A stretch of 59,694 bases of DNA from an uncultured euryarchaeote (lineage in GTDB: Archaea; Thermoplasmatota; Poseidoniia; Poseidoniales; Poseidoniaceae), in assembly GCA_964014165.1 (NCBI GenBank), contig CAXGZM010000001.1, positions 1-59,694 of the forward strand. Direction: 5' to 3'. Position numbers and translations under genes: made by a program. Shown here in pieces: positions 15,321 to 29,575 of the stretch (position 1 is its first letter; the number at the start of each line of letters is the position of its first letter). A model generated the notes under the pieces. It worked only from the letters and a program-made list of their open reading frames with translations, had not been told where the DNA came from and did not search any database.

Positions 15321-16775
15321 ATGACCGAGACGCTGCCGCGTTCGCCCTCCAGCGGGCGCGACGCTTCGTGGCTGGTGGGTGCAGACCTGATGGCCGTGGC
15401 GCTGGCGTTCGTCGGCCAAATCATGCTCACTCACGCCCTGTTGGCCGAGCATTACGGTTGGATGGTTCTCGCGATTGACCTCTACGCTTCCTTGTTTTTG
15501 GTCATTGATTTGGGTCTACCGACCTTGCTTGCCCGCGACGGTACGCGTGCGCCCGCCCTGGTCCCTGCCGCCGTGTGGCGCACGTACCGGTTGCAGGCCA
15601 TGGCGACCCTCCCCTTCGTGGGATTGGCTCTGTTGCTCCGTCCCGAACAGTGGTTGAACGTGGATGCACCGACCGTGTTGCTGTTGCTGGCGGCCTTGGT
15701 TGCGCTCGTTCACGTCGCTTCGTACGCACCTCGCTCGGGTTTGCGGGTGCTGGGTGAAGCTCGACTCGAGGCCTTGACCAAGGTGGCTGAACGTGGCGTA
15801 ACGGTCGCTGCCTACGCCGTGCTGGTGTGGAACGGGTCAACCTCTGCAACGGCGTTCACAGCTGCCTTTCTCGGTGGGGCTATCACGGGCTGGGGGCTGG
15901 CATTGTGGTGGCTGCTCCGCGTGGCCCCTCCTGCGCCCGCCCGCCTTGAATGGATGCAAATGGGCGACGATTGGGCCTCGTTTCGTACACTCATGATGGC
16001 AGCGCTTCCCTTTGCCATCACTTTGGGCATTTTACCTTACGTCATTCGCATCGAGAAATTCATGGTTGCCGCTTCGGGCGATGCCACCCTCGGTGCGGTC
16101 TTTCACGTCGCACAACTGGCATGGCTGGCTGGTTTGGTGGTGCCTGCTGCCATTCGGTCTGCCCTCTTGCCCGTCCTCGGTGCTGCACGGGATCGGCCCG
16201 AACGGCATCGGCGAGAGATGAATCAGGCTGCAGACATGTGTTTTGGCTTGCTGCCGTTCGGATTGTTTGGCGGCTACCTCATCATGAGGATCTTTGCACC
16301 GTTGGCGTTTCCATCCGAGTACCTCGACGGCACTTACGGTGCTTCGGCGGTGGACGTGTTCACCGTCTTGCTGGCAGGTTGGGCGCTCACGTTGTTGGCG
16401 ACGCCGACCTACACCAGCCTCATGGCAGGACCTCGTCCTTGGCGCTTCACGCTGTTCATCGTTCTCGTGTTGCTGGCCGCCGTGGCCTTTGGTTACGGAT
16501 TGGTGATGGAAGGGCCGGCAGATCCCGGACGGAAATTGTACGCTGCTGCGCTGGCAAGTTGCCTTTCTGCAGGCGTTTTGCTGGTGCTCTCGTGGCACAT
16601 GAGCGATGCGTGGGCGTGGGTTCGCACCCGCCAAGACGACTGGTCCTTGGCGATGCTCGGCAGTGCATTTGCGGTGATTGGGCTTGTCTCAACCACCTTT
16701 TGGTGGGTCCTCGGATTACCGCTCTTTTTGTTCACGAAACGAGGCTGGCGAGCAGTTCGCTCCACGCTTGACTGA
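15321..16775 (+). CDS. polytopic membrane protein, oligosaccharide flippase (MOP/Wzx)-like
   Basis: About 12-14 hydrophobic helices across 484 aa, next to a GT4 gene. Composition and length fit polysaccharide-biosynthesis flippases. No sharp motif. Confidence 0.5.
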   Translation: MTETLPRSPSSGRDASWLVGADLMAVALAFVGQIMLTHALLAEHYGWMVLAIDLYASLFLVIDLGLPTLLARDGTRAPALVPAAVWRTYRLQAMATLPFVGLALLLRPEQWLNVDAPTVLLLLAALVALVHVASYAPRSGLRVLGEARLEALTKVAERGVTVAAYAVLVWNGSTSATAFTAAFLGGAITGWGLALWWLLRVAPPAPARLEWMQMGDDWASFRTLMMAALPFAITLGILPYVIRIEKFMVAASGDATLGAVFHVAQLAWLAGLVVPAAIRSALLPVLGAARDRPERHRREMNQAADMCFGLLPFGLFGGYLIMRIFAPLAFPSEYLDGTYGASAVDVFTVLLAGWALTLLATPTYTSLMAGPRPWRFTLFIVLVLLAAVAFGYGLVMEGPADPGRKLYAAALASCLSAGVLLVLSWHMSDAWAWVRTRQDDWSLAMLGSAFAVIGLVSTTFWWVLGLPLFLFTKRGWRAVRSTLD

Positions 16776-17793
16776 CAGCCCTCATCGAAGCGAATTCGAG
16801 CTGTTCGTCCACCGAGGTCGTTCCGGTCCATCCGGTGCGGAGGGCTGCTTCGATACCGTCAGCCAACGCTTCGGGGTCCTCATCGCACACCCACGCTTCG
16901 GGGAGGTATTCCTTCACTTCGCCCACGTCAACGCTGACCACGGGCGTTCCGCACAACAGCGATTCTCTCGCAACCAACGGGCCAGCTTCTCGCAGGGAGG
17001 TGATGAGCGTCACGTCAGCGGTGAGCATCCGGTCGTAGACGATGTCGCGGGGTTGGTGGCGCAACGAGGTGATGCCCACGATCCACCCGCGTTGTTCCAA
17101 TGCCTCCCCTGTCTGCAAGGCGAGCAAATGCCGCTTTTCGCGGCGGCGGGGGTCTGCGGGAAACAGGATGTCAATGGGTTCCTTCTTCCACGTTTTTTTC
17201 ATCGGGGCAACCGGGCGACGCCACTCGTTGTGGATGTCCGTCACACAGGGAACGGTCGCCGTGCGCTTCGGGGGTTCGGGAAGTTTCGAAGCGATGTTCG
17301 ACAAGCGTCCGGTGGCGCAAACCAACACGTCGCAGGACGATGCTGCCGTTCTGATGTGGTCTCCGACGCCCTTGAGGTTGAGACCGACATCCAGGTCGTA
17401 GCCGTGGACGACGCCGACCCAGGGAACGCTCCAGCGCTCAGCGAGTCGTTGTGCGAGGTGAGCGACGGGCCAGAGGGTGTGACAAACGATCACGTCCGGT
17501 CGCCAATCGCCGAGTTGTTTTTCCACCCATCCAGCTTTCCGACGAACGCTGGAAACCGTGAGTTTTGGGTAAGGGTGGTCGGGCAGCGCAAAAAATCGGG
17601 GAACAAAGGTTTCGATGCCGTTGTGCAGCCACCGCTTCGGGGCCTTCGCTACGCCCATCATGGTGGAGCGACGAGCTTCGGCGTAGCGGGGCATGCGGGG
17701 AAGAGGGTTCACCACTTTCACGTCGTGTCCCATGGCCTTCAACAGGTGAACGTGGTCCTCCACGAAGATCCCGCGTGTTGGGTTACGCGGCAC
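16732..17793 (-). CDS. family 4 (GT-B) glycosyltransferase; the true start is probably upstream of the first canonical start codon
   Basis: PRNPTRGIFVEDHVHLLKAMGHDVKVV, and an EX7E-type region SLREAGPLVARESLLCGTPVV. The conserved first beta strand (IQILVVSLLYP) is encoded at 17826-17794, upstream of GTG 17793 (see findings). Confidence 0.75.
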   Translation of the reverse strand: MPRNPTRGIFVEDHVHLLKAMGHDVKVVNPLPRMPRYAEARRSTMMGVAKAPKRWLHNGIETFVPRFFALPDHPYPKLTVSSVRRKAGWVEKQLGDWRPDVIVCHTLWPVAHLAQRLAERWSVPWVGVVHGYDLDVGLNLKGVGDHIRTAASSCDVLVCATGRLSNIASKLPEPPKRTATVPCVTDIHNEWRRPVAPMKKTWKKEPIDILFPADPRRREKRHLLALQTGEALEQRGWIVGITSLRHQPRDIVYDRMLTADVTLITSLREAGPLVARESLLCGTPVVSVDVGEVKEYLPEAWVCDEDPEALADGIEAALRTGWTGTTSVDEQLEFASMRAVSQAWSELLASLVS

Positions 17794-17838
17794 GGGGTAG
17801 AGCAGAGAGACGACGAGGATCTGGATGGACAGCCCTCC

Positions 17839-18510
17839 TCAGTTGAGCGCTTGATGAATTTCGGCGAGGTTGTCAACCACGCTGGCTCGGTCGTTGAACA
17901 GACCCGAGCCAACGACACAGTTCGTGACGCCCCAGTCGCGCAGCATGGCGATGTTGTGGGCTTTCACGCCGCCGTCAACTTGGATCTGTACGGGGCGTCC
18001 ACCGGCGGCAACTTGCGCCTCAATCGCTTCAGAGAGCCGCCGAATTTTACTCTCAACGTTGGGAATGAACGACTGTCCCCCAAACCCGGGGTTCACGCTC
18101 ATGATGAGCACGAGGTCGACTTCAGTCAACACTTCCAACGCTGCTTCGACGGGCGTGGCTGGGTTCAACACGACCCCGGCCGTAGCGCCGCCTTGGCGGA
18201 TGGCACCGAGCAGGCGGTGGAGGTGCTTGACGGCTTCAACGTGCACCGAGAGGTGGTTACAACCCGCATCGATGTAGTCTTGAAAGCAGGCTTCTGCGTT
18301 TTCGATCATCAGGTGAGCGTCAAAGACGGCGTCCGGTCCGAGCGCTTTTCGAAGGCTGCGAATCACGGGCGGGCCGAACGTCAGGTTCGGGACGAAGTTG
18401 CCGTCCATCACGTCGAGGTGCAGCCAGGTGAGGCCTGCATCAATGGCTTCGTTACAGTCGTTGGCCAAGTCTGCGAGGTCGGCGGTGAGGACACTGGGTG
18501 CAATGATCAT
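17839..18510 (-). CDS. rpe: ribulose-phosphate 3-epimerase
   Basis: MIIAPSVLTADLADL...LHLDVMDGNFVPNLTFGP...SVNPGFGGQSF...VDGG. ATG 18510 gives the canonical N-terminus; the track ORF starts at 18600. Confidence 0.85.
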   Translation of the reverse strand: MIIAPSVLTADLADLANDCNEAIDAGLTWLHLDVMDGNFVPNLTFGPPVIRSLRKALGPDAVFDAHLMIENAEACFQDYIDAGCNHLSVHVEAVKHLHRLLGAIRQGGATAGVVLNPATPVEAALEVLTEVDLVLIMSVNPGFGGQSFIPNVESKIRRLSEAIEAQVAAGGRPVQIQVDGGVKAHNIAMLRDWGVTNCVVGSGLFNDRASVVDNLAEIHQALN

Positions 18511-18627
18511 GTCATCCCTCAACCTCACCCAGCCATCGCCATTTGAAGAGACTTGCCATCTTGAGCACCATTCATTTTGGCGCAAATGCCTATAGTGCAT
18601 CCCTGTTAGGCCGATTTAGGTGAAGGC

Positions 18628-18957
18628 ATGGGTGAAGTAAGGAACGTCAGCGACAGCGAATTCAACGACACCGTCAACAGCACCGAATGGGTCATCGTTG
18701 ACTTTTGGGCACCGTGGTGTGCGCCCTGCAAAGCCATCGGACCTGTCCTTGAGTCCGTCGCACAGGAACGAGAAATCCTCGTGGCGAAGGTTGACACCGA
18801 GCAGAACACGTCGACGGCTGCCCAGTTGGGGGTTCGCAGCATTCCAGCTCTGTTCATGTACCGCAACGGATCCATCGTTTCTCAGAAGACCGGCAGCATG
18901 CCCAAGGCCAAACTCCTCTCGTGGATTGACGAGGTCATGACAGCCGACGATTTCTGA
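18628..18957 (+). CDS. trxA: thioredoxin
   Basis: VDFWAPWCAPCK active site, 109 aa, AGGTGA 5 nt upstream of the ATG. Confidence 0.85.
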   Translation: MGEVRNVSDSEFNDTVNSTEWVIVDFWAPWCAPCKAIGPVLESVAQEREILVAKVDTEQNTSTAAQLGVRSIPALFMYRNGSIVSQKTGSMPKAKLLSWIDEVMTADDF

Positions 18958-18959
18958 AG

Positions 18960-20531
18960 TCAGGCCAAGCGGTTCTTCCGCTCTTCATGTTGCTCACCCA
19001 CGTCGCGGAGCAACCGCTCACGCAACGCCTCGTGGAGCCACATGCCCTCTTCCAGTTCCAGCAACAAGCCGTGCTTGAGCAAATTTTCCGGTGGCGTCCC
19101 GTTCCAACCGACGCCGGTCGCCAACGTCTCCCAAGCCACGGGTGCGTCAGCAACGGCCAGCGTTGCCAGCAGTTCTTTCTCTTGCTCGGGCAATCGGAGG
19201 AGGATTTCTTCATCAAGGAAGCGAAGCCAGTCTTTGTGAGTGGGTTGACCGTACAACTCCAGCAATTCCATCGCCAACGGGTGACCGCCGGTCGCTGCGT
19301 GAACGTCTTCGGCCGCTGGCGCATGGCCTCCGTCAAGGTTGGACAGCCACGCCTCGGTGGCCTCAAGGCTGAGTCCCTTCAGCGGAAGTTCGCGAACCGT
19401 GTCCCGAATGTGCACGTCCCGTCGGTCGTAGACGGTGAGTTCCGTTCGCGAGACCAGCAGAACGCGCAACGGCCCCTTTTGCGCGAGTTGCAAGAGCGAG
19501 CCGAGCAGGTGTCGAGCTTTCTCGCTGATGTGGTGCACATCATCCAAGACGATGAGCCAGTACGGGGGCGGGCCGCCAACGCTGTCCTTGAACCGCTCTC
19601 GGATGGTGTTGGCGTCGGTCATGTAGGCCATCAGACGGCGTCGCCAAGCATCCACGTCCATGTCGGCGCCAGGTGTCAGCGGCAACGTTTCGATGATGCG
19701 ATAGGGGTCGTGCGTTTCGTCGATTCCAAACCGATGAAGCAGGCTGGTTGCCAGCCCAAGTGCTCGGTCCCATGGCTGACACGTGTACCAGCACACCGAA
19801 AGATGCGGGTCGGTTTCCATGTGTTGTTGAAGCCAGTGAGCGATCAGCGTTGATTTCCCAATGCCAGCAATGCCGTGAACGACCATGCAGGGGTGCCGGT
19901 CAGCGAACCACGTGTGCAGGGTGTCCAACTCAGCGTCCCGTCCATAGACCGGTCGCGTCGGTGGAGGTTGGTTTGCATAGGTGGCGTGGACGCCCACGAG
20001 CGGTGTTAGTCGACCGGGCTGAGGCATGCCGTTGTCCTGTGTTTTTCGAATGCTGCCAAAGCGTATGTCGCCGTACGTCAGCACCCCCTCGTGCTGGGCG
20101 TGGAGAAGAATTTGCAGGAGCGTCAGGTCGGTTTCAAGCAAGTCCGGGGCTTCGGCGGCTTTCACCTCCAACAACTCCCCTTCCATGTTGCGCACCAGCA
20201 CCTTTGTTCCGTCCAACGCCACCTGACGCTGGCGTGCTCGAAGGCGCCCTTCTTCGGTCAGCTGCCACGTTTTTTGTCGTCGCTCATCGCCTTGAACCGC
20301 TCGGGTGTGTTCCTCAACGAGAAGGTCCTTGAGCAGGTCTCGCATCGTTCGGCTGACGTTGGGTGGATGTTGGGCACAAGCCTCAGCAATACCGGGGCGC
20401 GTGAGGGCCGGCGGAACCATGTAGCGGTCCGCCCATTCATCGTTGGCCAGTAGATGAAGCAGCACCCTGTCCTTGGCTGCGACGTTCACCTTGGGGATGT
20501 CGCCCGCCATGTTTCCGGCTGTCTTCCACAT
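18960..20531 (-). CDS. N-terminal winged-helix + NB-ARC-type STAND P-loop NTPase (putative signal-transducing regulator)
   Basis: A wHTH-like region at aa 20-100. Walker A HGIAGIGKSTL, Walker B WLIVLDDVHH, LLVSRT (sensor-like), and GGHPLAMELL, which resembles the GLPL motif of NB-ARC/AP-ATPases. Short helical C-terminus. Confidence 0.6.
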   Translation of the reverse strand: MWKTAGNMAGDIPKVNVAAKDRVLLHLLANDEWADRYMVPPALTRPGIAEACAQHPPNVSRTMRDLLKDLLVEEHTRAVQGDERRQKTWQLTEEGRLRARQRQVALDGTKVLVRNMEGELLEVKAAEAPDLLETDLTLLQILLHAQHEGVLTYGDIRFGSIRKTQDNGMPQPGRLTPLVGVHATYANQPPPTRPVYGRDAELDTLHTWFADRHPCMVVHGIAGIGKSTLIAHWLQQHMETDPHLSVCWYTCQPWDRALGLATSLLHRFGIDETHDPYRIIETLPLTPGADMDVDAWRRRLMAYMTDANTIRERFKDSVGGPPPYWLIVLDDVHHISEKARHLLGSLLQLAQKGPLRVLLVSRTELTVYDRRDVHIRDTVRELPLKGLSLEATEAWLSNLDGGHAPAAEDVHAATGGHPLAMELLELYGQPTHKDWLRFLDEEILLRLPEQEKELLATLAVADAPVAWETLATGVGWNGTPPENLLKHGLLLELEEGMWLHEALRERLLRDVGEQHEERKNRLA

Positions 20532-20596
20532 GTGTTCAAGACTTTGTTCATTTGGTGTGGCGGCACGTTTTGTTTGAGCATTTTTGCAAAAAGCAC

Positions 20597-20604
20597 TTTA
20601 TATT
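20597..20604 (+). promoter_or_regulatory. archaeal TATA-box candidate for the WD40/TSP3 gene (near-leaderless)
   Basis: TTTATATT followed by an A8 run, centred ~23 nt upstream of ATG 20623 in a 91-bp divergent intergenic region. Confidence 0.45.
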
Positions 20605-20622
20605 GAAAAAAAAGCCAACAGC

Positions 20623-23600
20623 ATGGCTTATTCCGGCGCCTCGCTTTCGACTCGAAAACATCGAGCAGTTCTGCTGGCTTTCCTCTTCCTTCTGTCGCTC
20701 ACCAGCCTTGCGAGTCAGGCTGCGGATTCGGATGGCGATGGCGTTGATGACAACGTGGACGATTGCCCGTGGGCAGCTGGCACCTCCACCGTTGACAAAG
20801 ACGGCTGCCCGGACCGAGACGGCGACGGTACGTCGGACTTCAACGACGTGTGGGTGATCGGCAACCCGAACTTCCAAAACGAATTCACCATCACCTCCAG
20901 CAGCGACTACTACGGCGTTGATTACCATCCAACGGGCGAATTCATTGTGACCGGCGCAGAGGATGGATTTGTCCGAATTTGGAACGCCAGCACCTGGACC
21001 ATCGTCCGCTCAGCGAACACCAACACCGACGTGTTTGGCGTTGATTTCTCCCCCGACGGCATGTACGTGGCGGCCGCCCTCAACGATGACACCATCAACA
21101 TCTACCACGCCAGTAACTTGACCTCAATCCACGGCGCCATCAGCGTGGACGTCGGCAGCGGTGACCAGGTCAACAACGTGGAGTTCTCACCCGACAGTTC
21201 GACCGTTGCTGTGGCCATTGGCCGCTCAGGAAACGGAGGCACCAACGGGGAAGTTGCCGTGATCGACGTTCAAACCGGTACCGAGCTCTACGCCGTTAAT
21301 CCCAACGGCGAGGATCGGTTCTATGACGTAGCACACTCGCCGGATGGCCAACACATGGCGCTGGCCGGCAACAGTGAAATCTACATTGTCAACACGACGT
21401 CGAGAGCGACAACATGGACGTTCACCAACCCACCTGCGGCCGTCAACGCCGTGGCTTGGTCGCCTGACGGAAACTACATTTCGATGTGCGGCGGTTGGGA
21501 AGGACAATCCGCCAGCTTTGACATGTACCAGTACGCCAGCGGTTCATGGAATCGCATTTGGCAGAAAACCATCTCGACATCCTGCGCGTCAACCACGTTC
21601 TCTGCTGACGGTTCTCAGGTGGTCGCCGGCATGTACTGGTACCAATCGGACGGCAACACGGCTCGGGTGTATGAATCCGATACCGGCACACAGATCGACT
21701 CGTTCAGCGGACCGCGTCCCGGCAGTTGCACCTCGGGAAGCAACAACCAGTGCGGCATCATGTACGGCGTTGCATGGAGCCCCGACTCCACCCACATCGT
21801 CACGGCCAACGGACGAAACGACGAGGGCGTCTACTTCTGGTTCGCCGACATCGACGAGGACAACGACGGCTACAACACAACGGATCAGGGCGACGGCATC
21901 GTCGATGCCTTCCCAACCGACGGAACGCAGTGGAACGACACCGATGCTGACGGCTTCGGCGACAACCCCGCACCAGCCAACGAGCCCGACGCATGTCCCA
22001 ACACACCGGGGGCCTCGACCCAAGATCGCTTTGGATGCCCTGACAGCGATGGCGACGGTTGGTCGGACGAAGGCGACTGGGCTCCGGCCGATCCGCTCCA
22101 GTGGGCGGATGCCGACGAGGACGGCTACGGCGATAACTATCGGTTTGAACTCAACGAATACCAAATCCACGTGAACCAAACCGGTGATGCTTTCCCCAAC
22201 GATCCAACGCAGTGGAACGACACCGACGGCGATGGCTTTGGCGACAACTACGACAACGCCTCGTGGAATTCCTACCGTCCATCAACGTGGCCCGGTCTCT
22301 TGCTTCCTGCTGCCAACCAGCCCGATGCTTTCCCGCTCGATCGCACCCAGCACATGGACTCCGACGGAGACTGGATTGGCGACAACCCCAACAGTGATCG
22401 TGCTGACGCTTGCCCTTACGAATACGGCGACTCGCAGTACGATCGACTCGGATGCCCCGACACCGATGGCGACGGCTATTCCGACCCCAGTGCTTCGTGG
22501 CCCAGCACCACGGACTGCTACGGCGCAGACGCTTTCCCTGACGACCCCACGCAGTGGTGCGATGAAGACAACGATGGATTCGGCAGCAACCCTGACGGGA
22601 ACAACCCCGATGACTGCCCGAACAACGCCGGCAGCTCCACCATCGACCGCGCAGGCTGCGTTGACCGAGACGGCGACGGGTATTCCAACGCCGGAGACCC
22701 CTTCCCCGACGACGCAACCCAATGGTCGGACCGAGACGGTGACAACCGAGGCGACAACGCGTCGGGCAACAACCCGGACGCCTTCCCTGACGACACGAGC
22801 CAGTGGAAGGACAGCGACGGCGACGGCTACGGCGACAACCCCGGAGGCAACAACGGGGATTTGTTCCCGACCGACCCCACGCAGTGGAGCGATGAGGACG
22901 GCGACGGCTACGGCGACAACACGGACGGCAACAACGGCGACCTTTGCCCGCTTGACTACGGTGAATCCCAGGCTGAACTCAGCCGTGGCTGTCCAGATTC
23001 CGACCTTGACGGCGTGACCGACCCGCTTGATGCCTTCCCTGACGATCCGTTCCAGTGGGCCGACACCGACGGTGATGGCTACGGTGACAACACGAACGTT
23101 CCCAGCGGAGACGACTGTGTGGATGTCTTTGGCAAGTCGTTTGAAGAAGGCCGTTTGGGATGCCCGGATGCCGACTTGGATGGCTACGCTGACGTTGACG
23201 ACGTCTTCCCCAACGATCAGGAACAATGGGAAGACTTTGACGGCGACGGCTACGGCGACAACTACTACTGGGAGAATTCCACGGTCGCTGATGAGGAAAA
23301 TCCAGGCATGTTCCTGACCCTGCGGGAGCAACGCGGGGACGCCTTCCCACAAATCGCCAGCCAGTGGTCCGACATGGATGGCGACGGTTGGGGCGACAAT
23401 CAGAGCAGTTCCAATCGCGTTGACAACTTCCCGCTTCGAGCGAGCCAGTGGCTGGACTTTGATGGCGACGGCTACGGCGACAATGCAACCGGCTACCAGT
23501 TCGACGCTTGCTACAAGGTGCCGGGAACGTCCACCACCGGGGACTACGAGGAGTACTTCGGATGCCCGGACGCAGACGGGGACGGAACAGCCGATGAATA

Positions 23601-24051
23601 CGATCCTTGCCCTTGGGACCCCGAGGTTTCACAGGGCTCTCGCAGCACGGCTGTCTGTGGCATCAAGGAAGACCCAAGCCTCGCCTCCAACGACGACGGT
23701 GGGGCTGGATCGCTCCTGAGCGGCAACGGTTCGACGCTCCAAATCATGGGTGGTGTCATCATCTTCTTGCTTGCACTCATCGTTGTTGCGCAAGTCGCCA
23801 AGACCGCTGGCCGTCGAAAGGCTGTGGCCTCCAAGCGGGACGACCAACTCGCTCAAGCGTCGGTCGCAGAGGAAGAAGAACGACGTCAAGCATGGATTCA
23901 ACACTACATCGCCGAAGGGAATTACGCAGAAGCTCGAGCGCTTGGTTGGGAGGGAACCGAAGGGTTGCCCGAATGGAAACAATACGAAATGCAGCAACAG
24001 GCTGCACAGGACGCAGCCATTCCAACCATGATGGACCTCGAAAACCTCTGA
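20623..24051 (+). CDS. giant surface protein: signal peptide, TSP3 repeats, 7-blade-like WD40 propeller, ~590-aa TSP3-like Ca-binding array, C-terminal TM anchor and ~80-aa cytoplasmic tail
   Basis: Signal peptide MAYSGASLSTRKHRAVLLAFLFLLSLTSLASQA. WD-like blades include GAEDGFVRIWN, FSPDGMYVAAA, WSPDGNYISMCGG and WSPDSTHIVTANG. There are dozens of DxDxDGxGD units. TM segment IMGGVIIFLLALIVVAQVA. Confidence 0.7.
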   Translation: MAYSGASLSTRKHRAVLLAFLFLLSLTSLASQAADSDGDGVDDNVDDCPWAAGTSTVDKDGCPDRDGDGTSDFNDVWVIGNPNFQNEFTITSSSDYYGVDYHPTGEFIVTGAEDGFVRIWNASTWTIVRSANTNTDVFGVDFSPDGMYVAAALNDDTINIYHASNLTSIHGAISVDVGSGDQVNNVEFSPDSSTVAVAIGRSGNGGTNGEVAVIDVQTGTELYAVNPNGEDRFYDVAHSPDGQHMALAGNSEIYIVNTTSRATTWTFTNPPAAVNAVAWSPDGNYISMCGGWEGQSASFDMYQYASGSWNRIWQKTISTSCASTTFSADGSQVVAGMYWYQSDGNTARVYESDTGTQIDSFSGPRPGSCTSGSNNQCGIMYGVAWSPDSTHIVTANGRNDEGVYFWFADIDEDNDGYNTTDQGDGIVDAFPTDGTQWNDTDADGFGDNPAPANEPDACPNTPGASTQDRFGCPDSDGDGWSDEGDWAPADPLQWADADEDGYGDNYRFELNEYQIHVNQTGDAFPNDPTQWNDTDGDGFGDNYDNASWNSYRPSTWPGLLLPAANQPDAFPLDRTQHMDSDGDWIGDNPNSDRADACPYEYGDSQYDRLGCPDTDGDGYSDPSASWPSTTDCYGADAFPDDPTQWCDEDNDGFGSNPDGNNPDDCPNNAGSSTIDRAGCVDRDGDGYSNAGDPFPDDATQWSDRDGDNRGDNASGNNPDAFPDDTSQWKDSDGDGYGDNPGGNNGDLFPTDPTQWSDEDGDGYGDNTDGNNGDLCPLDYGESQAELSRGCPDSDLDGVTDPLDAFPDDPFQWADTDGDGYGDNTNVPSGDDCVDVFGKSFEEGRLGCPDADLDGYADVDDVFPNDQEQWEDFDGDGYGDNYYWENSTVADEENPGMFLTLREQRGDAFPQIASQWSDMDGDGWGDNQSSSNRVDNFPLRASQWLDFDGDGYGDNATGYQFDACYKVPGTSTTGDYEEYFGCPDADGDGTADEYDPCPWDPEVSQGSRSTAVCGIKEDPSLASNDDGGAGSLLSGNGSTLQIMGGVIIFLLALIVVAQVAKTAGRRKAVASKRDDQLAQASVAEEEERRQAWIQHYIAEGNYAEARALGWEGTEGLPEWKQYEMQQQAAQDAAIPTMMDLENL
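20725..20848 (+). repeat. N-terminal thrombospondin-type-3-like Ca-binding repeats (coding)
   Basis: DSDGDGVDDNVDDCP ... DKDGCPDRDGDGTSDFND. Confidence 0.6.
21841..23620 (+). repeat. degenerate coding array of ~30 TSP3-like DxDxDG(Y/F/W)GDN units
   Basis: GAC/GGC-rich periodic DNA. Every reading frame on both strands stays open for 200-350 codons here, a by-product of the repeat. Confidence 0.7.
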
Positions 24052-24109
24052 CGTACCACACACCGATTGCACCGCTGACCTTTCAAAGGAGAACGGGCCA
24101 TGTTTTCAC

Positions 24110-26662
24110 ATGGGCGAGAAGCCGGCAGGCCGATTGTTGATGTTAGCGGGGTTGCTGTTGACCTCGTTGTTCATCGGCATGGTCTCGGCCGATGAGGGCG
24201 ACGTGGTCCTTGCAGCGAGCGTGGTGAACCCGCCCGACCATCCATGGTACGACCCCGCCCATCCGCTCATTCTTGAGCCCCGCTTGACCAACAATGGCCC
24301 CGACGTGTCCCTCTTGATGAATCCGGCGTGCCCCGTGGTCCTGAACGTCTACAACGCGAGTGATGTAATGGTGGTTGACGGCTCATCCGAATGTCCTCAA
24401 CGCGAACAGGGCCTCGATCTTTTTGCGGGTGAGCAGATCGCCCTTGAAGCCGTCTCATGGTCGATGAAAGACAACGCGGGTGGCTGGCTTGAGAGCGGAA
24501 CCTACACCGTTGAACTTCTCCATTCCGTCGGGGCATCGTTCGCCACGGAGGTGACGATCCAGACACCGTTTTCCCTTCCGCAGGAATTGACGTACGCCGT
24601 ACAGACCGCTCAGCGAGGCGATGACGGCCAACTTGTCCACCTCGTGAGTTTGTACAACCCCACGGCAGAAAGCGTCTCGCTTGCAGACATGACGGCATGC
24701 TGGCTCGAGATTTCGGTCAACGATGCTCACCGCCTGGGAGCACCCTGCACCGGTGGCGTGAGCAACTTGATGCCCGGCGAAGTCATGCTGGTGGACCAAG
24801 TCTCGGCTGCTTTGACATCCAAGGTCTCGATTTCAACGCCCGGTGATTCGTTTGTGTTCAACAGCGCCGAAGCGTCGGCGACCACCACGGCCTCGCCCAC
24901 GCTCGAGATGGAACTCGCACTCAGCGGCAACGAACTGCCCGCGTACAGCCCGAGCGAAGTGCTGGTCAGCGAAGTGCTGTTGCGCTCATCCTCTTCCGAA
25001 GCCGTCCAGGTGGAATTCACCGATTCGTGCAAGGCCGAACTTTGGGTGGTGGACGACCTTGGCCATGTGGTTTATGACAGCCGCTCGGGCAAAGTCTGCA
25101 CACCGATCGATCTCGAAGTCGTGGTTGAATCAGATGCCCCGGAACAACTCACGTTGCCACAATGGAATTTCTACGACAGCGAGGGGTGCATGGTTCAACC
25201 AGGGACCTACACCGTGGTTGCTGAAGTACCTGAACACGACCTGATCACCAGCAAGACCGTTGAATTCCTCTCGGTGGAAGCCAACCCGTGCACTTCGCCG
25301 GACGCCGCATCACTCACCGCATCGCTGACGTGGCAGGACGACCGCACCGTTCGCCTCAACGCCGAGGCCTTCACCAACCAAGCCGACCATCTTCGAATGG
25401 CCCAACCGTGCACCTTTGAAGTCGCTTTCCTCGACGAGGAAGACAACACCGTCCACCTCTTCCAAACCCTGTGCGATGCCTACGACGGCCGCAAAATCCT
25501 CCTGCCGGACGCATCCCAATCCCTCAAATTCGATGCGGTCGACATCAGCATGGTTCAGGACGGCTCACCGCTCCTCCCGGATGGCTTCTACACCCTCAGC
25601 CTCACGATGTTGTCAACCTCTTCCTCCACGACCACCCTCCCGTTGGCGTGGCCGGCTGATTTTGGCGAACAGGAAACGGATGAGGCGGTGGCAGAACCAC
25701 CCGAGACGTTCGAACTAACGGGCAGTTGGACCGGGTTGCTCACGGACGAGGGGACGTGTTACGTCATGGACTCGGACGGCGAGACTTACCTGTTGTCCAA
25801 CGCTCGTACGCTTCCATCGTGGCAACCGAGCGCCTTGAACCAAGGCGTCTACGTCGTTGTCGAAACCGTGCCTTCTCCCGCTTGCAGCGACTATCTGGCG
25901 CCATCGGTTGAAGTGGTCGAGGTCCGCATGGAACAACCCCTCGTCAGCGAAGAAACCGCAAGCGTTGAAGTCAACGAGGAGCCAACCACTGCTGTTGCTG
26001 AATCCAACACCGTCGTCACGGCCGTGAGCGTGGTCGTGACCGCCTCCGTCCTCTCGATGTTTGTCGTGGTCGCCGCCACCAACGAAGGATTGCGATTGCC
26101 GGCCACTGCTGCCGGCTTGTGGTTCCTCGGCCTCGTCGGCAAAACCCATGAAACCACGGACGGACGATACCAGCGCGGTCGACTGATGGGCTACCTCACG
26201 GCCAATCCGGGATGCCACTTCAGGGCCCTCATGAGCGCCCTTGACATGAGCAACGGGCAGATCACGCATCACCTTCGTATTCTTGAGGCTGAAGAACACG
26301 TCTGGCGAAAGGGCGACGGCCGCCTGGTCCGATTTTATCCACTCACCAACAAACTCAATCCCAACACCAGCGAAGAAGATCTTCCCGTTCCACCGCTTTC
26401 TCCTGACCCGAACAGCCTGCAAGGAAAGATCCTGAACTTGCTGGACCAAGGCGGGGATTTGGGGCAATTCCCTACGCAGGCCGAACTCGCAAAGCGCCTT
26501 GAAAAAAGTCAACAGTTGATCTCTCATCACCTGCGGACCTTGCAAAAATACGGGTTGGTCGAGCGTCGGAAGATGGGAGTCAAGAACCGCTACAAACTCA
26601 CTCGGGAAGCGGTCTTCCTGTTGGAGACGAGTGACGACTTTGCCCACGACGACCTCCTCTGA
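24110..26662 (+). CDS. membrane-tethered protein: signal/TM, four Cys-pair Ig-like (BsuPI-like) ectodomain repeats, 2 TM segments, two C-terminal ArsR-type wHTH domains
   Basis: N-terminal LLMLAGLLLTSLFIGMVSA. Repeated C-x(15-22)-C ... (S/P/D)G(T/F)YT(V/L) modules. TM VVTAVSVVVTASVLSMFVVVAAT. wHTH 1 is CHFRALMSALDMSNGQITHHLRILEAEEHVWRK. wHTH 2 is QAELAKRLEKSQQLISHHLRTLQKYGLVERR. Confidence 0.55.
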   Translation: MGEKPAGRLLMLAGLLLTSLFIGMVSADEGDVVLAASVVNPPDHPWYDPAHPLILEPRLTNNGPDVSLLMNPACPVVLNVYNASDVMVVDGSSECPQREQGLDLFAGEQIALEAVSWSMKDNAGGWLESGTYTVELLHSVGASFATEVTIQTPFSLPQELTYAVQTAQRGDDGQLVHLVSLYNPTAESVSLADMTACWLEISVNDAHRLGAPCTGGVSNLMPGEVMLVDQVSAALTSKVSISTPGDSFVFNSAEASATTTASPTLEMELALSGNELPAYSPSEVLVSEVLLRSSSSEAVQVEFTDSCKAELWVVDDLGHVVYDSRSGKVCTPIDLEVVVESDAPEQLTLPQWNFYDSEGCMVQPGTYTVVAEVPEHDLITSKTVEFLSVEANPCTSPDAASLTASLTWQDDRTVRLNAEAFTNQADHLRMAQPCTFEVAFLDEEDNTVHLFQTLCDAYDGRKILLPDASQSLKFDAVDISMVQDGSPLLPDGFYTLSLTMLSTSSSTTTLPLAWPADFGEQETDEAVAEPPETFELTGSWTGLLTDEGTCYVMDSDGETYLLSNARTLPSWQPSALNQGVYVVVETVPSPACSDYLAPSVEVVEVRMEQPLVSEETASVEVNEEPTTAVAESNTVVTAVSVVVTASVLSMFVVVAATNEGLRLPATAAGLWFLGLVGKTHETTDGRYQRGRLMGYLTANPGCHFRALMSALDMSNGQITHHLRILEAEEHVWRKGDGRLVRFYPLTNKLNPNTSEEDLPVPPLSPDPNSLQGKILNLLDQGGDLGQFPTQAELAKRLEKSQQLISHHLRTLQKYGLVERRKMGVKNRYKLTREAVFLLETSDDFAHDDLL
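24272..25624 (+). repeat. four divergent ~75-100-aa Ig-like modules (protein-level repeat)
   Basis: Each module has a Cys pair: C74/C95, C197/C213, C307/C330, C434/C455. Modules 1, 3 and 4 end in a G(T/F)YT(V/L) strand. Confidence 0.45.
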
Positions 26663-26749
26663 TGTTGGTGCCGTACCGGCTGAAGCGAGGCGTGGATTTC
26701 ATAGCGTGCTGCTCAGTGGCCACGGATGTCCAGTGGGCGGTGATTGAGC

Positions 26750-29575
26750 ATGTCAGCCGAAGCAGAACCTGTGGACGAAGTTGGGTGGCAGCAACAATGG
26801 GACGATGCCGGCCTGTTTCACGCTGACATTCACAGCGACCGCCCCAAGTTCTACTGCCTTGAGATGTACCCCTACCCGTCGGGAAAAATGCACATGGGAC
26901 ACGTCCGAAATTACTCCATTGGCGACGCTGTGGCCCGTTTCAAGCGTTTGATGGGGTATGATGTGCTCTACCCCATGGGCTTCGACTCCTTTGGTATGCC
27001 AGCAGAGAACGCTGCGATCTCCGAGGGCGGTCACCCTCACGACATCACGGAACGCAACATGGCTTCCATCACCCAACAGATCAAGCGGATGGGATTTTCC
27101 TATGACTGGCGTCGAACCCTCAAGAGTCACGACCCACGCTACTACAAATGGAATCAGTGGTTCTTCACGAAGTTCATGGAAATCGGCCTTGCGACGCGTG
27201 AATTCTCTCCGGTTAACTGGTGCACGTCCTGCAACACGGTGCTGGCCAATGAACAGGTGAAAGCTGGCCGATGCTGGCGTTGCAACGGCCCCGTGAGCCA
27301 GAAAGAGATGAACCAGTGGTTCCTTGATCTCCCTTCCTACGGCCAGGAACTTGAAGACGGCCTCGATACCATCGGTTTCCCCGAGCACGTCAAATCGCTC
27401 CAGCGCGACTGGTTGGGCCGGTCCGAGGGTGCGAACATCCGCTTTGGAATCGTTGATGATGACCGTGATATCGAAGTGTTCACCACTCGGCCTGACACGC
27501 TGTTTGGTTCAACGTTCGTCACCCTCGCTCCCGAACATCCTCTTGCGGAATCGTTGGTCGCTGGAGGCGAGCACGAGGCTGCCTGGAAAGCCCTGTACGA
27601 TGAGGTGGCGTCGATGGCAGAGTTTGATCGGATCAAGAACATGAACAAGAAGAAGGGCGTGTTTTCCGGACGCTACGCCATCCACCCCTTGACGGGTGAA
27701 CATGTCCCGATTTGGATCGGGAACTTTGTCATCGCTACCTACGGTACAGGGGCCGTCATGGCCGTGCCCGCCCATGACGAGCGGGACCACGACTTTGCCA
27801 AGCAATACGGCATTCCCATCAAGCGTGTCTTGGTGATGGAAGAAGGCGGCAACCCGGATGCACCGGTTGACAGCGCCGAAGTTGACCTTGGTTGGATGGT
27901 GAACAGCCCACTGGATGGTTTCGATGGCCTGCACGGCTCGGAGGCCAAGCAAGCCGTCTGCGATGCTCTCGAGAAGGTCGGACGCGGTTCGCAAACCATC
28001 AACTGGAAGATTCGGCCGTGGCTCATCTCCCGACAGCGGTACTGGGGGACGCCCATTCCCGTCATTCACTGCGACGATTGCGGCCCGGTCCCGGTTCCCG
28101 AAGAGGACCTCCCGGTGGAACTCCCACGGGACGTGGTGTTCGGTCAAGGCAACCCGCTGACGACGTCCGAGTCGTTCCTGAACGTGGACTGTCCCAGCTG
28201 CGGCAAACCTGCTCGCAGAGAGACCGACACCATGGACACGTTCATCGATTCCTCGTGGTACTTCCTCCGCTACACGGATGCGCTTAACGACGAGCAACCG
28301 TTTGAAAAGGCGATTGCCAACCACTGGATGAACGTTGATTTCTACTGCGGCGGCATCGAGCACGCTCAAATGCACCTCATCTACGCTCGATTCATGACCA
28401 AAGCGCTTCGCGATCTTGGTTTGGTGGACGTTGATGAACCGTTCAACGAGCTTCTCTGTCAGGGCATGGTCAACAAGGCTGCCCCGTTCTGTCAGCCTTG
28501 CGGCGTCACCCTCCCGACCGTCTACGAGGGGCAATCCTGCCCGCATTGTGATAGTGAACTTGGTTCACGCTCTGCGAAAATGAGCAAATCGCTGGGCAAC
28601 ACTGTCTCGCCCGAGGACATGATTGACCGCTACGGTGCCGATACCGTCCGCTTGTTCATTCTCTTTGCAGCAAACCCGACGGCCGGCATGGACTGGTCCG
28701 ATGCGGCGCTGGACGCCAATCACCGCGTCATGGTGCAAATGCGCAGCATGCCCGAGCAGTTGATGGCTTGGCCCGAGATTGCCTCACCGCTGGACGGTTG
28801 GTTGGAAGCCCGCTTCGCACAACGAGTGCACGAATTCTCCCAGGCCATGGACGCGTATGACCTGCGACGTGCGGTGGAAATCTCGCACTACGAGATCATC
28901 AAAGACATCAACTGGTACACGCGACGCGGCGGGCAAAACGTGGACGTTGCACGCCGTTGGCTTCCCACCTGGGCCCAGATGGTTTCCGTTTCAACGCCTC
29001 ACCTTGCTGAAGAATGGTGGGCGGCGATGGAAGGCACGAGCGGCCTTGTCGCAGGCAGCACCATGACGGTCCCCAACCAACTCTCCGACGACCAGCAAAC
29101 CTTGCTCGATGGCGAGCAATACATCCGTGACGTGTTGGAGCAGGCCCGAAAGGTTCGTGTCGTTGCCGAGCGCCATTTGGGTCAGCCAGCCAGCGAGGCT
29201 ACGTTCGTGGTCTCACCGTCATGGAAACGAACCATGGCTCAAGCAGCCTTGTCGTTCATTCAGGACGGCGGGCACCCGAAACAGTTCATTCCAATCCTGC
29301 AAGCGCTTCCAATGGCGCAGGGCGAGCGAAAAGGCGAGATGATCGGTTTCTGGGGCAAGAAAATGCTGCCACAGGTGTTCAAATGGGACGATGCCTCGAA
29401 GGGCGTGATCGCTTCAACGCTTGACGAGGTCGCTGTTCTTGCTGCAGCTCGAGCGTTCATCGCAGATGAACTTCAACTCGCCTCCGTTCACGTGGTGCTC
29501 GGTGAAGGTGATGATGACGACACCGGGCGTGCAGGCTCGGCCATGCCGCTTTCACCGGCGGTCGTTTACGCTTGA
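26750..29575 (+). CDS. leuS: leucyl-tRNA synthetase, bacterial-type
   Basis: YPYPSGKMHMGHVRNYSIGD (HIGH), RDWLGRSEG, TTRPDTLFG, GTGAVMAVPAHDERD, WLISRQRYWGTPIP and KMSKSLGN. Collinear with E. coli LeuRS as I remember it. ATG 26750; the track TTG is at 26744. Confidence 0.9.
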   Translation: MSAEAEPVDEVGWQQQWDDAGLFHADIHSDRPKFYCLEMYPYPSGKMHMGHVRNYSIGDAVARFKRLMGYDVLYPMGFDSFGMPAENAAISEGGHPHDITERNMASITQQIKRMGFSYDWRRTLKSHDPRYYKWNQWFFTKFMEIGLATREFSPVNWCTSCNTVLANEQVKAGRCWRCNGPVSQKEMNQWFLDLPSYGQELEDGLDTIGFPEHVKSLQRDWLGRSEGANIRFGIVDDDRDIEVFTTRPDTLFGSTFVTLAPEHPLAESLVAGGEHEAAWKALYDEVASMAEFDRIKNMNKKKGVFSGRYAIHPLTGEHVPIWIGNFVIATYGTGAVMAVPAHDERDHDFAKQYGIPIKRVLVMEEGGNPDAPVDSAEVDLGWMVNSPLDGFDGLHGSEAKQAVCDALEKVGRGSQTINWKIRPWLISRQRYWGTPIPVIHCDDCGPVPVPEEDLPVELPRDVVFGQGNPLTTSESFLNVDCPSCGKPARRETDTMDTFIDSSWYFLRYTDALNDEQPFEKAIANHWMNVDFYCGGIEHAQMHLIYARFMTKALRDLGLVDVDEPFNELLCQGMVNKAAPFCQPCGVTLPTVYEGQSCPHCDSELGSRSAKMSKSLGNTVSPEDMIDRYGADTVRLFILFAANPTAGMDWSDAALDANHRVMVQMRSMPEQLMAWPEIASPLDGWLEARFAQRVHEFSQAMDAYDLRRAVEISHYEIIKDINWYTRRGGQNVDVARRWLPTWAQMVSVSTPHLAEEWWAAMEGTSGLVAGSTMTVPNQLSDDQQTLLDGEQYIRDVLEQARKVRVVAERHLGQPASEATFVVSPSWKRTMAQAALSFIQDGGHPKQFIPILQALPMAQGERKGEMIGFWGKKMLPQVFKWDDASKGVIASTLDEVAVLAAARAFIADELQLASVHVVLGEGDDDDTGRAGSAMPLSPAVVYA

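Follow-up and report, generated by a model that had tools for sequence, protein, structure and literature searches.

Three neighbouring genes on a Poseidoniales contig are best read, with a probability of roughly 0.6, as separately transcribed neighbours that lie side by side mainly through the conserved gene order of this chromosome stretch and do not form an obligate three-part system. The DNA in question, here called the window, is a 59,694-nucleotide stretch of contig CAXGZM010000001.1 (assembly GCA_964014165.1) from an uncultured euryarchaeote. Its source genome is a Poseidonia (Marine Group II, Poseidoniaceae) metagenome-assembled genome of 1.74 Mb and 80% completeness. The genes encode a STAND NTPase with a predicted winged helix-turn-helix (wHTH) domain (hereafter STAND), a giant surface protein (SURF) and a predicted membrane-anchored transcription regulator (P3). 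According to the favoured reading, this stretch of the Poseidoniales chromosome would have kept its gene order since before two families split.

A preliminary description, made from the letters of the DNA, had proposed a regulator-adhesin-regulator module at this site. The gene identities and architectures that it assigned to STAND, the surface protein and P3 are confirmed by domain matches and structural models. The module itself is not supported: the genes occur apart, their flanks are equally syntenic, and their promoters are separate. The proposal had gene order as its sole basis, and its outcome guards against over-reading synteny in the Poseidoniales. In the surface ocean, Marine Group II archaea rank with the most abundant microbes; to our knowledge they have no cultured member, and we know of no account of how they sense particles, algae or viruses.

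The three genes are arranged as follows:
18960-20510, minus strand: STAND NTPase gene (open reading frame from an alternative upstream start at 20531), identified by Pfam, a PDB sequence match, AlphaFold2 (AF2)/Foldseek and invariant motifs
20623-24051, plus strand: SURF, a giant type-I surface protein of 1142 aa, identified by Pfam WD40/propeller matches, motif count, membrane helix and tail
24110-26662, plus strand: P3 (850 aa), a predicted transmembrane transcription regulator of type-I topology, identified by Pfam, NCBIfam and AF2

Searches with the STAND protein, P3 and the SURF propeller as queries covered 61 genomes of the window's family and 81 genomes of the class, and 13 window genes were mapped onto 20 fetched loci for the synteny comparison. 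The class sample contains 24 genomes of the window's family (f1) and 16 of the sister family (f2). A collinear block of ~20 kb, which includes rpe, thioredoxin and leuS, is found in both families at 13 loci and reads PALP ... polysaccharide synthase - GT4 - rpe - trx - STAND - SURF - (MBL) - P3 - leuS - TSP3b - TPD - GHMP, where MBL is a gene of the metallo-beta-lactamase fold. Within this block, rpe adjoins STAND in 18 of the 20 mapped loci and P3 is adjacent to leuS in all 13 of 13, and the adjacency of SURF and P3 is no better conserved than that of rpe and STAND or of P3 and leuS. Since the housekeeping flanks are equally syntenic, adjacency alone carries little information about function.

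Distribution separates the genes further. STAND is present in 24/24 f1 and 15/16 f2 genomes of the class sample, at 45-88% identity, and that sample shows it in no other order of the class; it is a core gene of the order Poseidoniales. SURF and full-length P3 share one phyletic pattern in the same sample, which is narrower than that of STAND. Five small-genome genera of the sister family have neither the SURF propeller nor a full-length P3. At the locus, which was checked in four of them, STAND sits beside rpe with no SURF or P3, and three of these four also have an S15 peptidase and an M32 carboxypeptidase there. Genus g5 reads STAND - MBL-fold gene - leuS at this locus, and a SURF-like protein with 33% identity and a different, short tail is encoded elsewhere, between the genes for 2-oxoacid dehydrogenase E1 and uridine kinase. 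Genus g10 (genome G009) has STAND-SURF-MBL-leuS, with P3 cleanly missing. Insertions are found as well: in G059, from the window's own genus, a 4-gene glycosylation cassette lies between SURF and STAND, and G064 has a histidine kinase gene separating SURF from P3.

Joint loss that reaches beyond the unrelated flanks, the mark of a three-gene module, is not what g5, the five sister-family genera and g10 display. The co-occurrence and adjacency that the preliminary description expected in relatives hold in part: within the family, 10 of 12 genera keep the order STAND-SURF-P3, as do 3-4 sister-family genera, but STAND is found beside unrelated genes without SURF or P3, and SURF is found without P3 in g10. 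Independent occurrence beside unrelated genes, which that description had named as the result that would speak against it, is largely what is seen.

These patterns bear most directly on the three-part module, in which STAND would read the SURF tail from inside, P3 would sense the outside, and both would set expression of the adhesin. The conserved gene order in most genera and the conserved SURF tail are what such a module would leave behind, and by analogy it gains from a TPR-bearing STAND paralogue whose gene, in 7/7 genomes, immediately follows that of a second giant tailed surface protein. Yet where SURF and P3 have been lost, STAND persists at 51-58% identity, similar to the 56-63% in sister-family genomes that keep them; by this comparison, it diverges no faster where SURF has been lost. 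STAND also lacks the arm or sensor domain that could bind a tail, the insertions in G059 and G064 split the genes, and each gene has a promoter of the general type, with no shared operator found among them. Taken together, the module is very improbable.

Full-length P3 was never found away from SURF. Three genomes have P3 with no SURF match, and the same three also miss the otherwise universal STAND gene, which indicates assembly gaps or contig breaks and not a true absence of SURF. The preliminary description placed the third gene 58 nt downstream of SURF on the same strand, with an ectodomain joined through the membrane to two wHTH domains, and this holds; the 58-nt gap has no terminator. 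The gap is occupied in other genomes by the MBL-fold gene (~250 aa, with a THSHWDH motif), which lies on the opposite strand between SURF and P3 in at least 11 genera from both families:
genera g12, g11, g8, g2, g3, g9, g6, g10, g13, g19 and g14; loci L026, L027, L029-L033, L037-L039 and L051: MBL-fold gene between SURF and P3

This gene has been lost from the window's genus (it is absent at 24052-24109) and from g4, and no orthologue was found elsewhere in the source genome. Comparison of the loci indicates that MBL is the ancestral occupant of the SURF-P3 spacer and that SURF and P3 form no ancestral operon. With an ancestral MBL between the two genes, the 58-nt spacing is therefore derived.

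An association of P3 with SURF is a possible functional link, and the sole remaining candidate for one, judging from sequence comparisons. In its strong form, P3 and SURF would make a two-gene unit in which P3 is a dedicated outside sensor and regulator that senses a SURF ligand or the state of SURF and sets SURF transcription, with STAND unrelated to both. The restriction of P3 to places beside SURF, and a shared phyletic pattern narrower than that of STAND, agree with this unit, as does g5, which lost both genes around a retained MBL; the loss events observed number two or three, too few to establish a link. Relatives of P3 are moreover fused to TSP_3 repeats (locus L054) or placed beside a PKD surface protein (locus L050). 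Several results pull the other way. G009 keeps SURF with an intact tail and has no P3; an opposite-strand gene ancestrally separated the two, and their promoters are separate; P3-leuS adjacency is equally conserved; and other members of the P3 family sit beside uvrA or fttA. The P3 ectodomain and the SURF propeller type also do not co-vary, as the ectodomain does not follow propeller type (42% vs 47%), a pattern that argues against a specific contact between propeller and P3. A dedicated two-gene unit is accordingly rated unlikely.

Promoter comparisons assign each gene its own candidate element:
20534-20540, minus strand: STAND promoter-like box CTTGAAC, 23 nt upstream of ATG 20510
20586-20604, plus strand: SURF BRE/TATA promoter (BRE, TFB recognition element), GCAAAAAGCA CTTTATATT, from the comparison of orthologous spacers
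24069-24089, plus strand: promoter-like element of P3 itself, 21 nt, GCACCGCTGA CCTTTCAAAGG, with its centre ~26 nt before ATG 24110

The CTTGAAC box recurs at 22-23 nt in the four orthologous spacers measured, and related forms appear in the other spacers compared. The TATA box of SURF, CTTTATATT at 20596-20604, lies ~22 nt before ATG 20623, a geometry that fits a leaderless transcript, and a BRE/TATA-like element (ACCACAAnnCCTTTWWW) is present in most of 12 orthologous spacers, in degenerate form in some. The P3 element is kept in 11 of 14 orthologous upstream regions, being unclear only in three sister-family loci, and it is also kept in genera that have the opposite-strand gene ahead of P3. 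All three elements share the geometry of archaeal leaderless-mRNA promoters.

A k-mer survey of 557 upstream regions of the source genome, over positions -42..-15, places these elements in context. The most enriched words are TTCAAA, TCAAAG, AAAGGG and TTGAAC, the last of them 2.7-fold enriched genome-wide, and together they suggest a non-canonical consensus for the TATA region in this lineage. Because the P3 and STAND elements match these words, they are taken as ordinary promoters and not as operators. Canonical A/T-only TATA heptamers are rare here, with 5 copies of CTTTATA and 16 of TTTATAT in the 1.74-Mb genome, and the SURF TATA box is unusual only in being canonical. Its canonical form suggests strong SURF expression.

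The divergent arrangement of STAND and SURF and the strong TATA box CTTTATATT were correctly described at the outset, and the 91-bp size then given to the spacer needs revision. Most STAND orthologues and public gene calls start at M8, which gives a protein of 516 aa, the commonest form in databases. This makes ATG 20510 the probable start and gives the divergent spacer a length of 112 bp. The search for operator motifs in this spacer, which the preliminary description had suggested, found only the two promoters conserved and no shared operator. A palindrome next to the TATA box, TTTTTGCAAAAA, occurs only in the window and, imperfectly, in the nearest relative. The CCTTTCAAAGG palindrome upstream of P3 was likewise rejected as an operator, since it matches the genome-wide promoter k-mer consensus. 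The word CCTTTNAAAGG occurs once in the window, within the P3 element, where 1.3 occurrences are expected by chance. The inverted repeats found are weak and none is convincing, terminator-like sites are at chance level, and no Rfam family is matched in 18000-27500.

Several points weigh against three independent neighbours. Most genera of two families preserve the order of the trio, and STAND and SURF diverge from a short common spacer, as a regulator and its target typically do. The conserved SURF tail must bind something in the cytoplasm. In addition, a paralogous STAND forms a tight pair with a different giant tailed surface protein, and by analogy the coupling of STAND and surface proteins may be a real theme in the order.

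Structurally, the STAND protein resembles known transcription switches, yet it ends early. Its domains are laid out as follows:
residues ~19-107: predicted winged helix, MarR/ArsR-like
residues ~110-160: small conserved linker domain
thereafter: core of nucleotide-binding domain, helical domain and winged-helix domain (NBD-HD-WHD)

The full open reading frame, 18960-20531 on the minus strand, encodes 523 aa. At the Pfam cut-off of E<=0.01 used for the window proteins, AAA_16 matches residues 194-357 (E 1.9e-15), and nSTAND and NB-ARC families match as well. Residues invariant across orthologues include Walker A GIGKST (223-228), Walker B DD (330-331), the GxP motif GHPLA (416-420) and WLH with the WHD histidine (498-500). 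The best solved relative in a PDB sequence search is PH0952 (6mfv, E 8e-11). An AF2 model with pLDDT 76 gives 6mfv, Apaf-1, CED-4 and MalT as top Foldseek matches, the best fold match again being PH0952 (E 5e-12). The N-terminal residues 19-107 adopt a winged-helix-like AF2 fold with pLDDT 85-95. At the sequence level this domain yields a weak match to SlyA (E 0.11) and no Pfam HTH family at the cut-off, and precomputed Pfam annotation gives HTH_Crp_2 or MarR_2 for some orthologues. The protein stops directly past the WHD, with no arm and no sensor domain, and Pfam finds no TPR, WD40 or LRR repeat family in it. It is collinear with residues 18-482 of an 849-aa paralogue, which runs on into TPR repeats.

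PH0952 of Pyrococcus horikoshii combines an N-terminal ArsR-like effector, a nucleotide-binding oligomerization domain (NOD), an arm and a TPR sensor (Lisa et al. 2019, PMC6468293), and in PH0952 and MalT the arm and TPR sensor bind the inducer and keep the switch in its resting, closed state (PMC6468293). Like members of this clade, the window's STAND keeps Walker A and B, the GxP motif and the WHD histidine, and so has the features of the NOD. Unlike them, it corresponds to the PH0952 layout cut off after the WHD, without arm or TPR sensor; the full layout is seen in a paralogue of 845 to 849 aa elsewhere in the same genomes. These features point to an order-wide, sensor-less relative of the PH0952/MalT-type transcription switches. 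It is most likely an ATP-dependent, oligomerising DNA-binding regulator, and its function would be independent of the surface protein. A defence identity of the Avs type was rejected: the sole PADLOC match covers the P-loop only (E 0.008), there is no effector domain, and the gene lies at a fixed locus in 39/40 sampled genomes of the order, in place of the patchy, island-like distribution of Avs-like systems.

SURF combines an extracellular propeller with calcium-binding repeats and a conserved cytoplasmic end:
from the N-terminus: signal peptide, 2 DxDxDG units, WD40 beta-propeller at ~75-410, then ~20 more DxDxDG units
23743-23808, plus strand: membrane helix
23800-24048, plus strand: cytoplasmic tail of 83 aa

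A pattern count finds 22 calcium-binding units of the form DxDxD[G/N/W], 12 of them [TS]QWxDxDGDGxGDN, in place of the roughly 30 DxDxDG motifs first reported. The initial label of a WD40/TSP3 protein is sound for the propeller and, by pattern, for the DxDxDG units; Pfam TSP_3 does not match SURF at E<=0.01, and NCBIfam matches to TSP3-type proteins are weak. The neighbouring TSP3b protein, in contrast, matches Pfam TSP_3 (5e-27). Thrombospondin-type surface proteins of Poseidoniales are widespread in Marine Group II and have been read as adhesins (Rinke et al. 2019, PMC6461757). SURF resembles those proteins in being large, secreted or anchored, and rich in aspartate-based calcium-binding units, and differs from them by adding an extracellular WD40 propeller and the conserved 83-aa cytoplasmic tail.

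The tail, first estimated at ~80 aa, keeps the motif EEEERRxxWIxHYxxxGxxxxAxxLGW...PxWKQ[HY]E...PTMxDLDxL in both families, and a search of the source genome with the tail found no second copy. The motif is intact in G009, where P3 is missing, so P3 is not the sole partner of the tail; a cytoplasmic partner other than P3 alone would be expected. The outer propeller evolves differently. Between the window and two genomes of its own genus, propeller identity is 41% (G059) and 84% (G030), while over the same comparison the SURF repeats (80-85%), the tail (75-83%) and STAND (83-88%) follow the species relationship. Across a wider set that includes G059, G045, G015 and G049, the propeller region (20860-21880) is 40-41% identical to that of some same-genus genomes, 80-84% to that of other same-genus genomes and 67-73% to that of other genera. 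On these identities, the propeller appears to be a hypervariable or swapped cassette.

SURF may thus be pictured as a strongly promoted, calcium-stabilised, single-pass surface protein whose exposed WD40 propeller swaps rapidly, and which probably serves as an adhesin or envelope component. A more specific proposal makes it a major structural, S-layer-like envelope protein and no adhesin, with both regulators as bystanders. One of the genome's few canonical strong TATA boxes, a C-terminal membrane anchor and a hypervariable outer module, as expected of a dominant exposed antigen, would suit that role. A dominant structural protein sits poorly, however, with the failure to find SURF in five sister-family genera, with its replacement in g5 by a divergent copy at another locus, and with TSP3b and the Big_7 protein, large surface proteins of comparable build that this genome also encodes. 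The S-layer-like role is improbable.

The architecture of P3 is as follows:
residues 30-150, 160-250, 265-390, 400-515 and 534-610: ectodomain of five beta-sandwich domains with six Cys pairs
from nt 26012, plus strand: membrane helix at residues ~635-658
residues 663-676: juxtamembrane amphipathic helix, invariant across orthologues
26171-26344, plus strand: first winged helix (wHTH1), residues 688-745
26423-26614, plus strand: second winged helix (wHTH2), residues 772-835

The N-terminus is a signal peptide. Pfam matches are HTH_HVO_0163_N (1.3e-13), the ArsR-type HTH_5 (5.3e-11) and BsuPI (1.5e-6), NCBIfam gives ArsR/SmtB (9e-15), and an orthologue is named by NCBI "ArsR family transcriptional regulator [Poseidonia sp.]". 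The AF2 model has pLDDT 85-90 in the ectodomain and <50 in the cytoplasmic part, and in Foldseek the whole model finds only generic macroglobulin-type (MG) beta-sandwich arrays at a TM-score of ~0.12. Segment 635-658 is helical in the model, with acidic residues on its N-terminal and K/R on its C-terminal side; this charge pattern places the C-terminus in the cytoplasm. Conservation follows the same division: across orthologues the cytoplasmic part is 49-91% identical and the ectodomain 21-47%, and within the window's genus the P3 ectodomain reaches only 47% where STAND reaches 88%.

For the module of membrane helix and double wHTH, 1858 representative homologues were found at E<=1e-3; they come from Poseidoniales and Thermoplasmata and bear generic names. 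Among the best 150 of the 1858, nearly all non-fragments have one membrane helix just N-terminal of the first wHTH, and they end at the second wHTH behind a variable N-terminal ectodomain of 100-1150 aa. Ectodomains of module homologues include FG-GAP with CARDB, and TSP_3. A 699-aa relative in genus g5 (G004, L054:8096-10195) has a TSP_3 repeat in its ectodomain before the membrane helix and double winged helix; calcium-repeat and regulator parts, as predicted in this protein, can be fused in one chain. Other family members adjoin uvrA or fttA, and the L050 member adjoins a PKD surface protein.

ToxR, TcpP and CadC are the bacterial archetypes of transmembrane transcription regulators (TTRs). 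The class was defined and surveyed by Demey et al. 2023 (PMC10269533), and 56% of its catalogued members are single-pass. Archaeal examples, in the passage of PMC13286277 that cites Bischof et al. 2019 (PMC6396743), are ArnR and ArnR1 of Sulfolobus acidocaldarius. By its predicted features P3 belongs to this catalogued class: it joins both defining elements of TTRs (PMC10269533), a predicted membrane helix and predicted DNA-binding domains, in one single-pass chain, and its extracytoplasmic domain could receive a signal. Unlike ToxR, CadC and ArnR, P3 has a reversed topology, with signal peptide, ectodomain, membrane helix and then C-terminal cytoplasmic wHTH domains. It also carries two tandem winged helices, of HVO_0163-N type and ArsR type, in place of the single OmpR-type domain of ToxR-type proteins, and its five Cys-paired beta-sandwich domains set its ectodomain apart from known TTRs.

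From this architecture, the fast-evolving Ig-like outer domains of P3 would bind an outside cue, and the near-invariant juxtamembrane helix and two winged helices would work on DNA either from the membrane or once freed by proteolysis. Since P3 was found nowhere but next to SURF, SURF would be the likeliest target or sensing context of P3, and it is offered as a guess. A role for P3 in defence regulation was rejected, as its PADLOC matches, to Csa3/CasR, involve the HTH only. An archaellum-regulator role was also set aside: g13 and g14 have SURF and P3 and no archaellin, and g20 has archaellin and neither gene.

All three proteins are additional members of already known protein kinds. Three parts of this picture lend themselves to testing: a predicted large subfamily of double winged-helix regulators that are anchored in the membrane as type-I proteins, a STAND switch that is core to the order and has no sensor, and a surface protein whose outer propeller swaps while its inner tail is conserved.

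A tighter pair of a STAND gene and a surface-protein gene is seen elsewhere in genomes of both families:
L055:1212-6448 (G030:C6), also L056-L061: pair of Big_7 surface protein and STAND paralogue

Here the TPR-bearing STAND paralogue (849 aa; wHTH, NOD, arm and TPR) lies directly downstream of, and on the same strand as, a type-I surface protein of 1410-1490 aa. The gap between them is -4 to 61 nt in 7/7 genomes of both families, including g5 and a small-genome member of the sister family. Besides a Big_7 Ig domain, this surface protein carries a conserved cytoplasmic tail marked by the motifs FFFIEFEE, EDPYAWAK and HPGWLWDxxSNQWVPDP, and it is plausible that the paralogue's TPR sensor reads this tail. 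The flanks of the pair, however, are also largely collinear.

Extended to the window, this parallel yields a bolder scheme, in which giant single-pass surface proteins of Poseidoniales are receptors whose conserved tails are read by wHTH-STAND ATPases in two paralogous pairs, Big_7 protein with TPR-STAND and SURF with the sensor-less STAND. This scheme is a long shot. If it were true, it would represent a new kind of transmembrane signalling in archaea, a surface-to-transcription route not described there, and P3 would provide a second, direct route at the same locus. As a separate observation, the tail of the g5 Big_7 protein (L060:7365-11798, G050) ends ...YVQQLITQGYDETSARAYAEQYRDRF and resembles the SURF tail motif WIQHYIAEGNYAEARALGW, a UBA-like pattern. 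The resemblance falls in exactly the genus where SURF left the STAND locus.

Among the flanking genes, leuS (26744-29575) does carry a bacterial-type editing domain in this archaeal genome, as first described (PF13603, E 5e-60). On the other side of the trio, an 89-aa open reading frame between rpe and STAND (18606-18957, minus strand) is the antisense shadow of a thioredoxin gene. That gene (18628-18957, plus strand) encodes 109 aa with a CAPC motif, converges with STAND and ends 2 nt from the STAND end. The 89-aa frame was dropped as a gene, its tblastn conservation being explained by the antisense thioredoxin. A 622-codon frame (16678-18546, plus strand) was discarded in the same way as a shadow over GT4 (16732-17793, minus strand) and rpe (17839-18600, minus strand); a tblastn search with this 622-aa shadow still yields apparently conserved matches.

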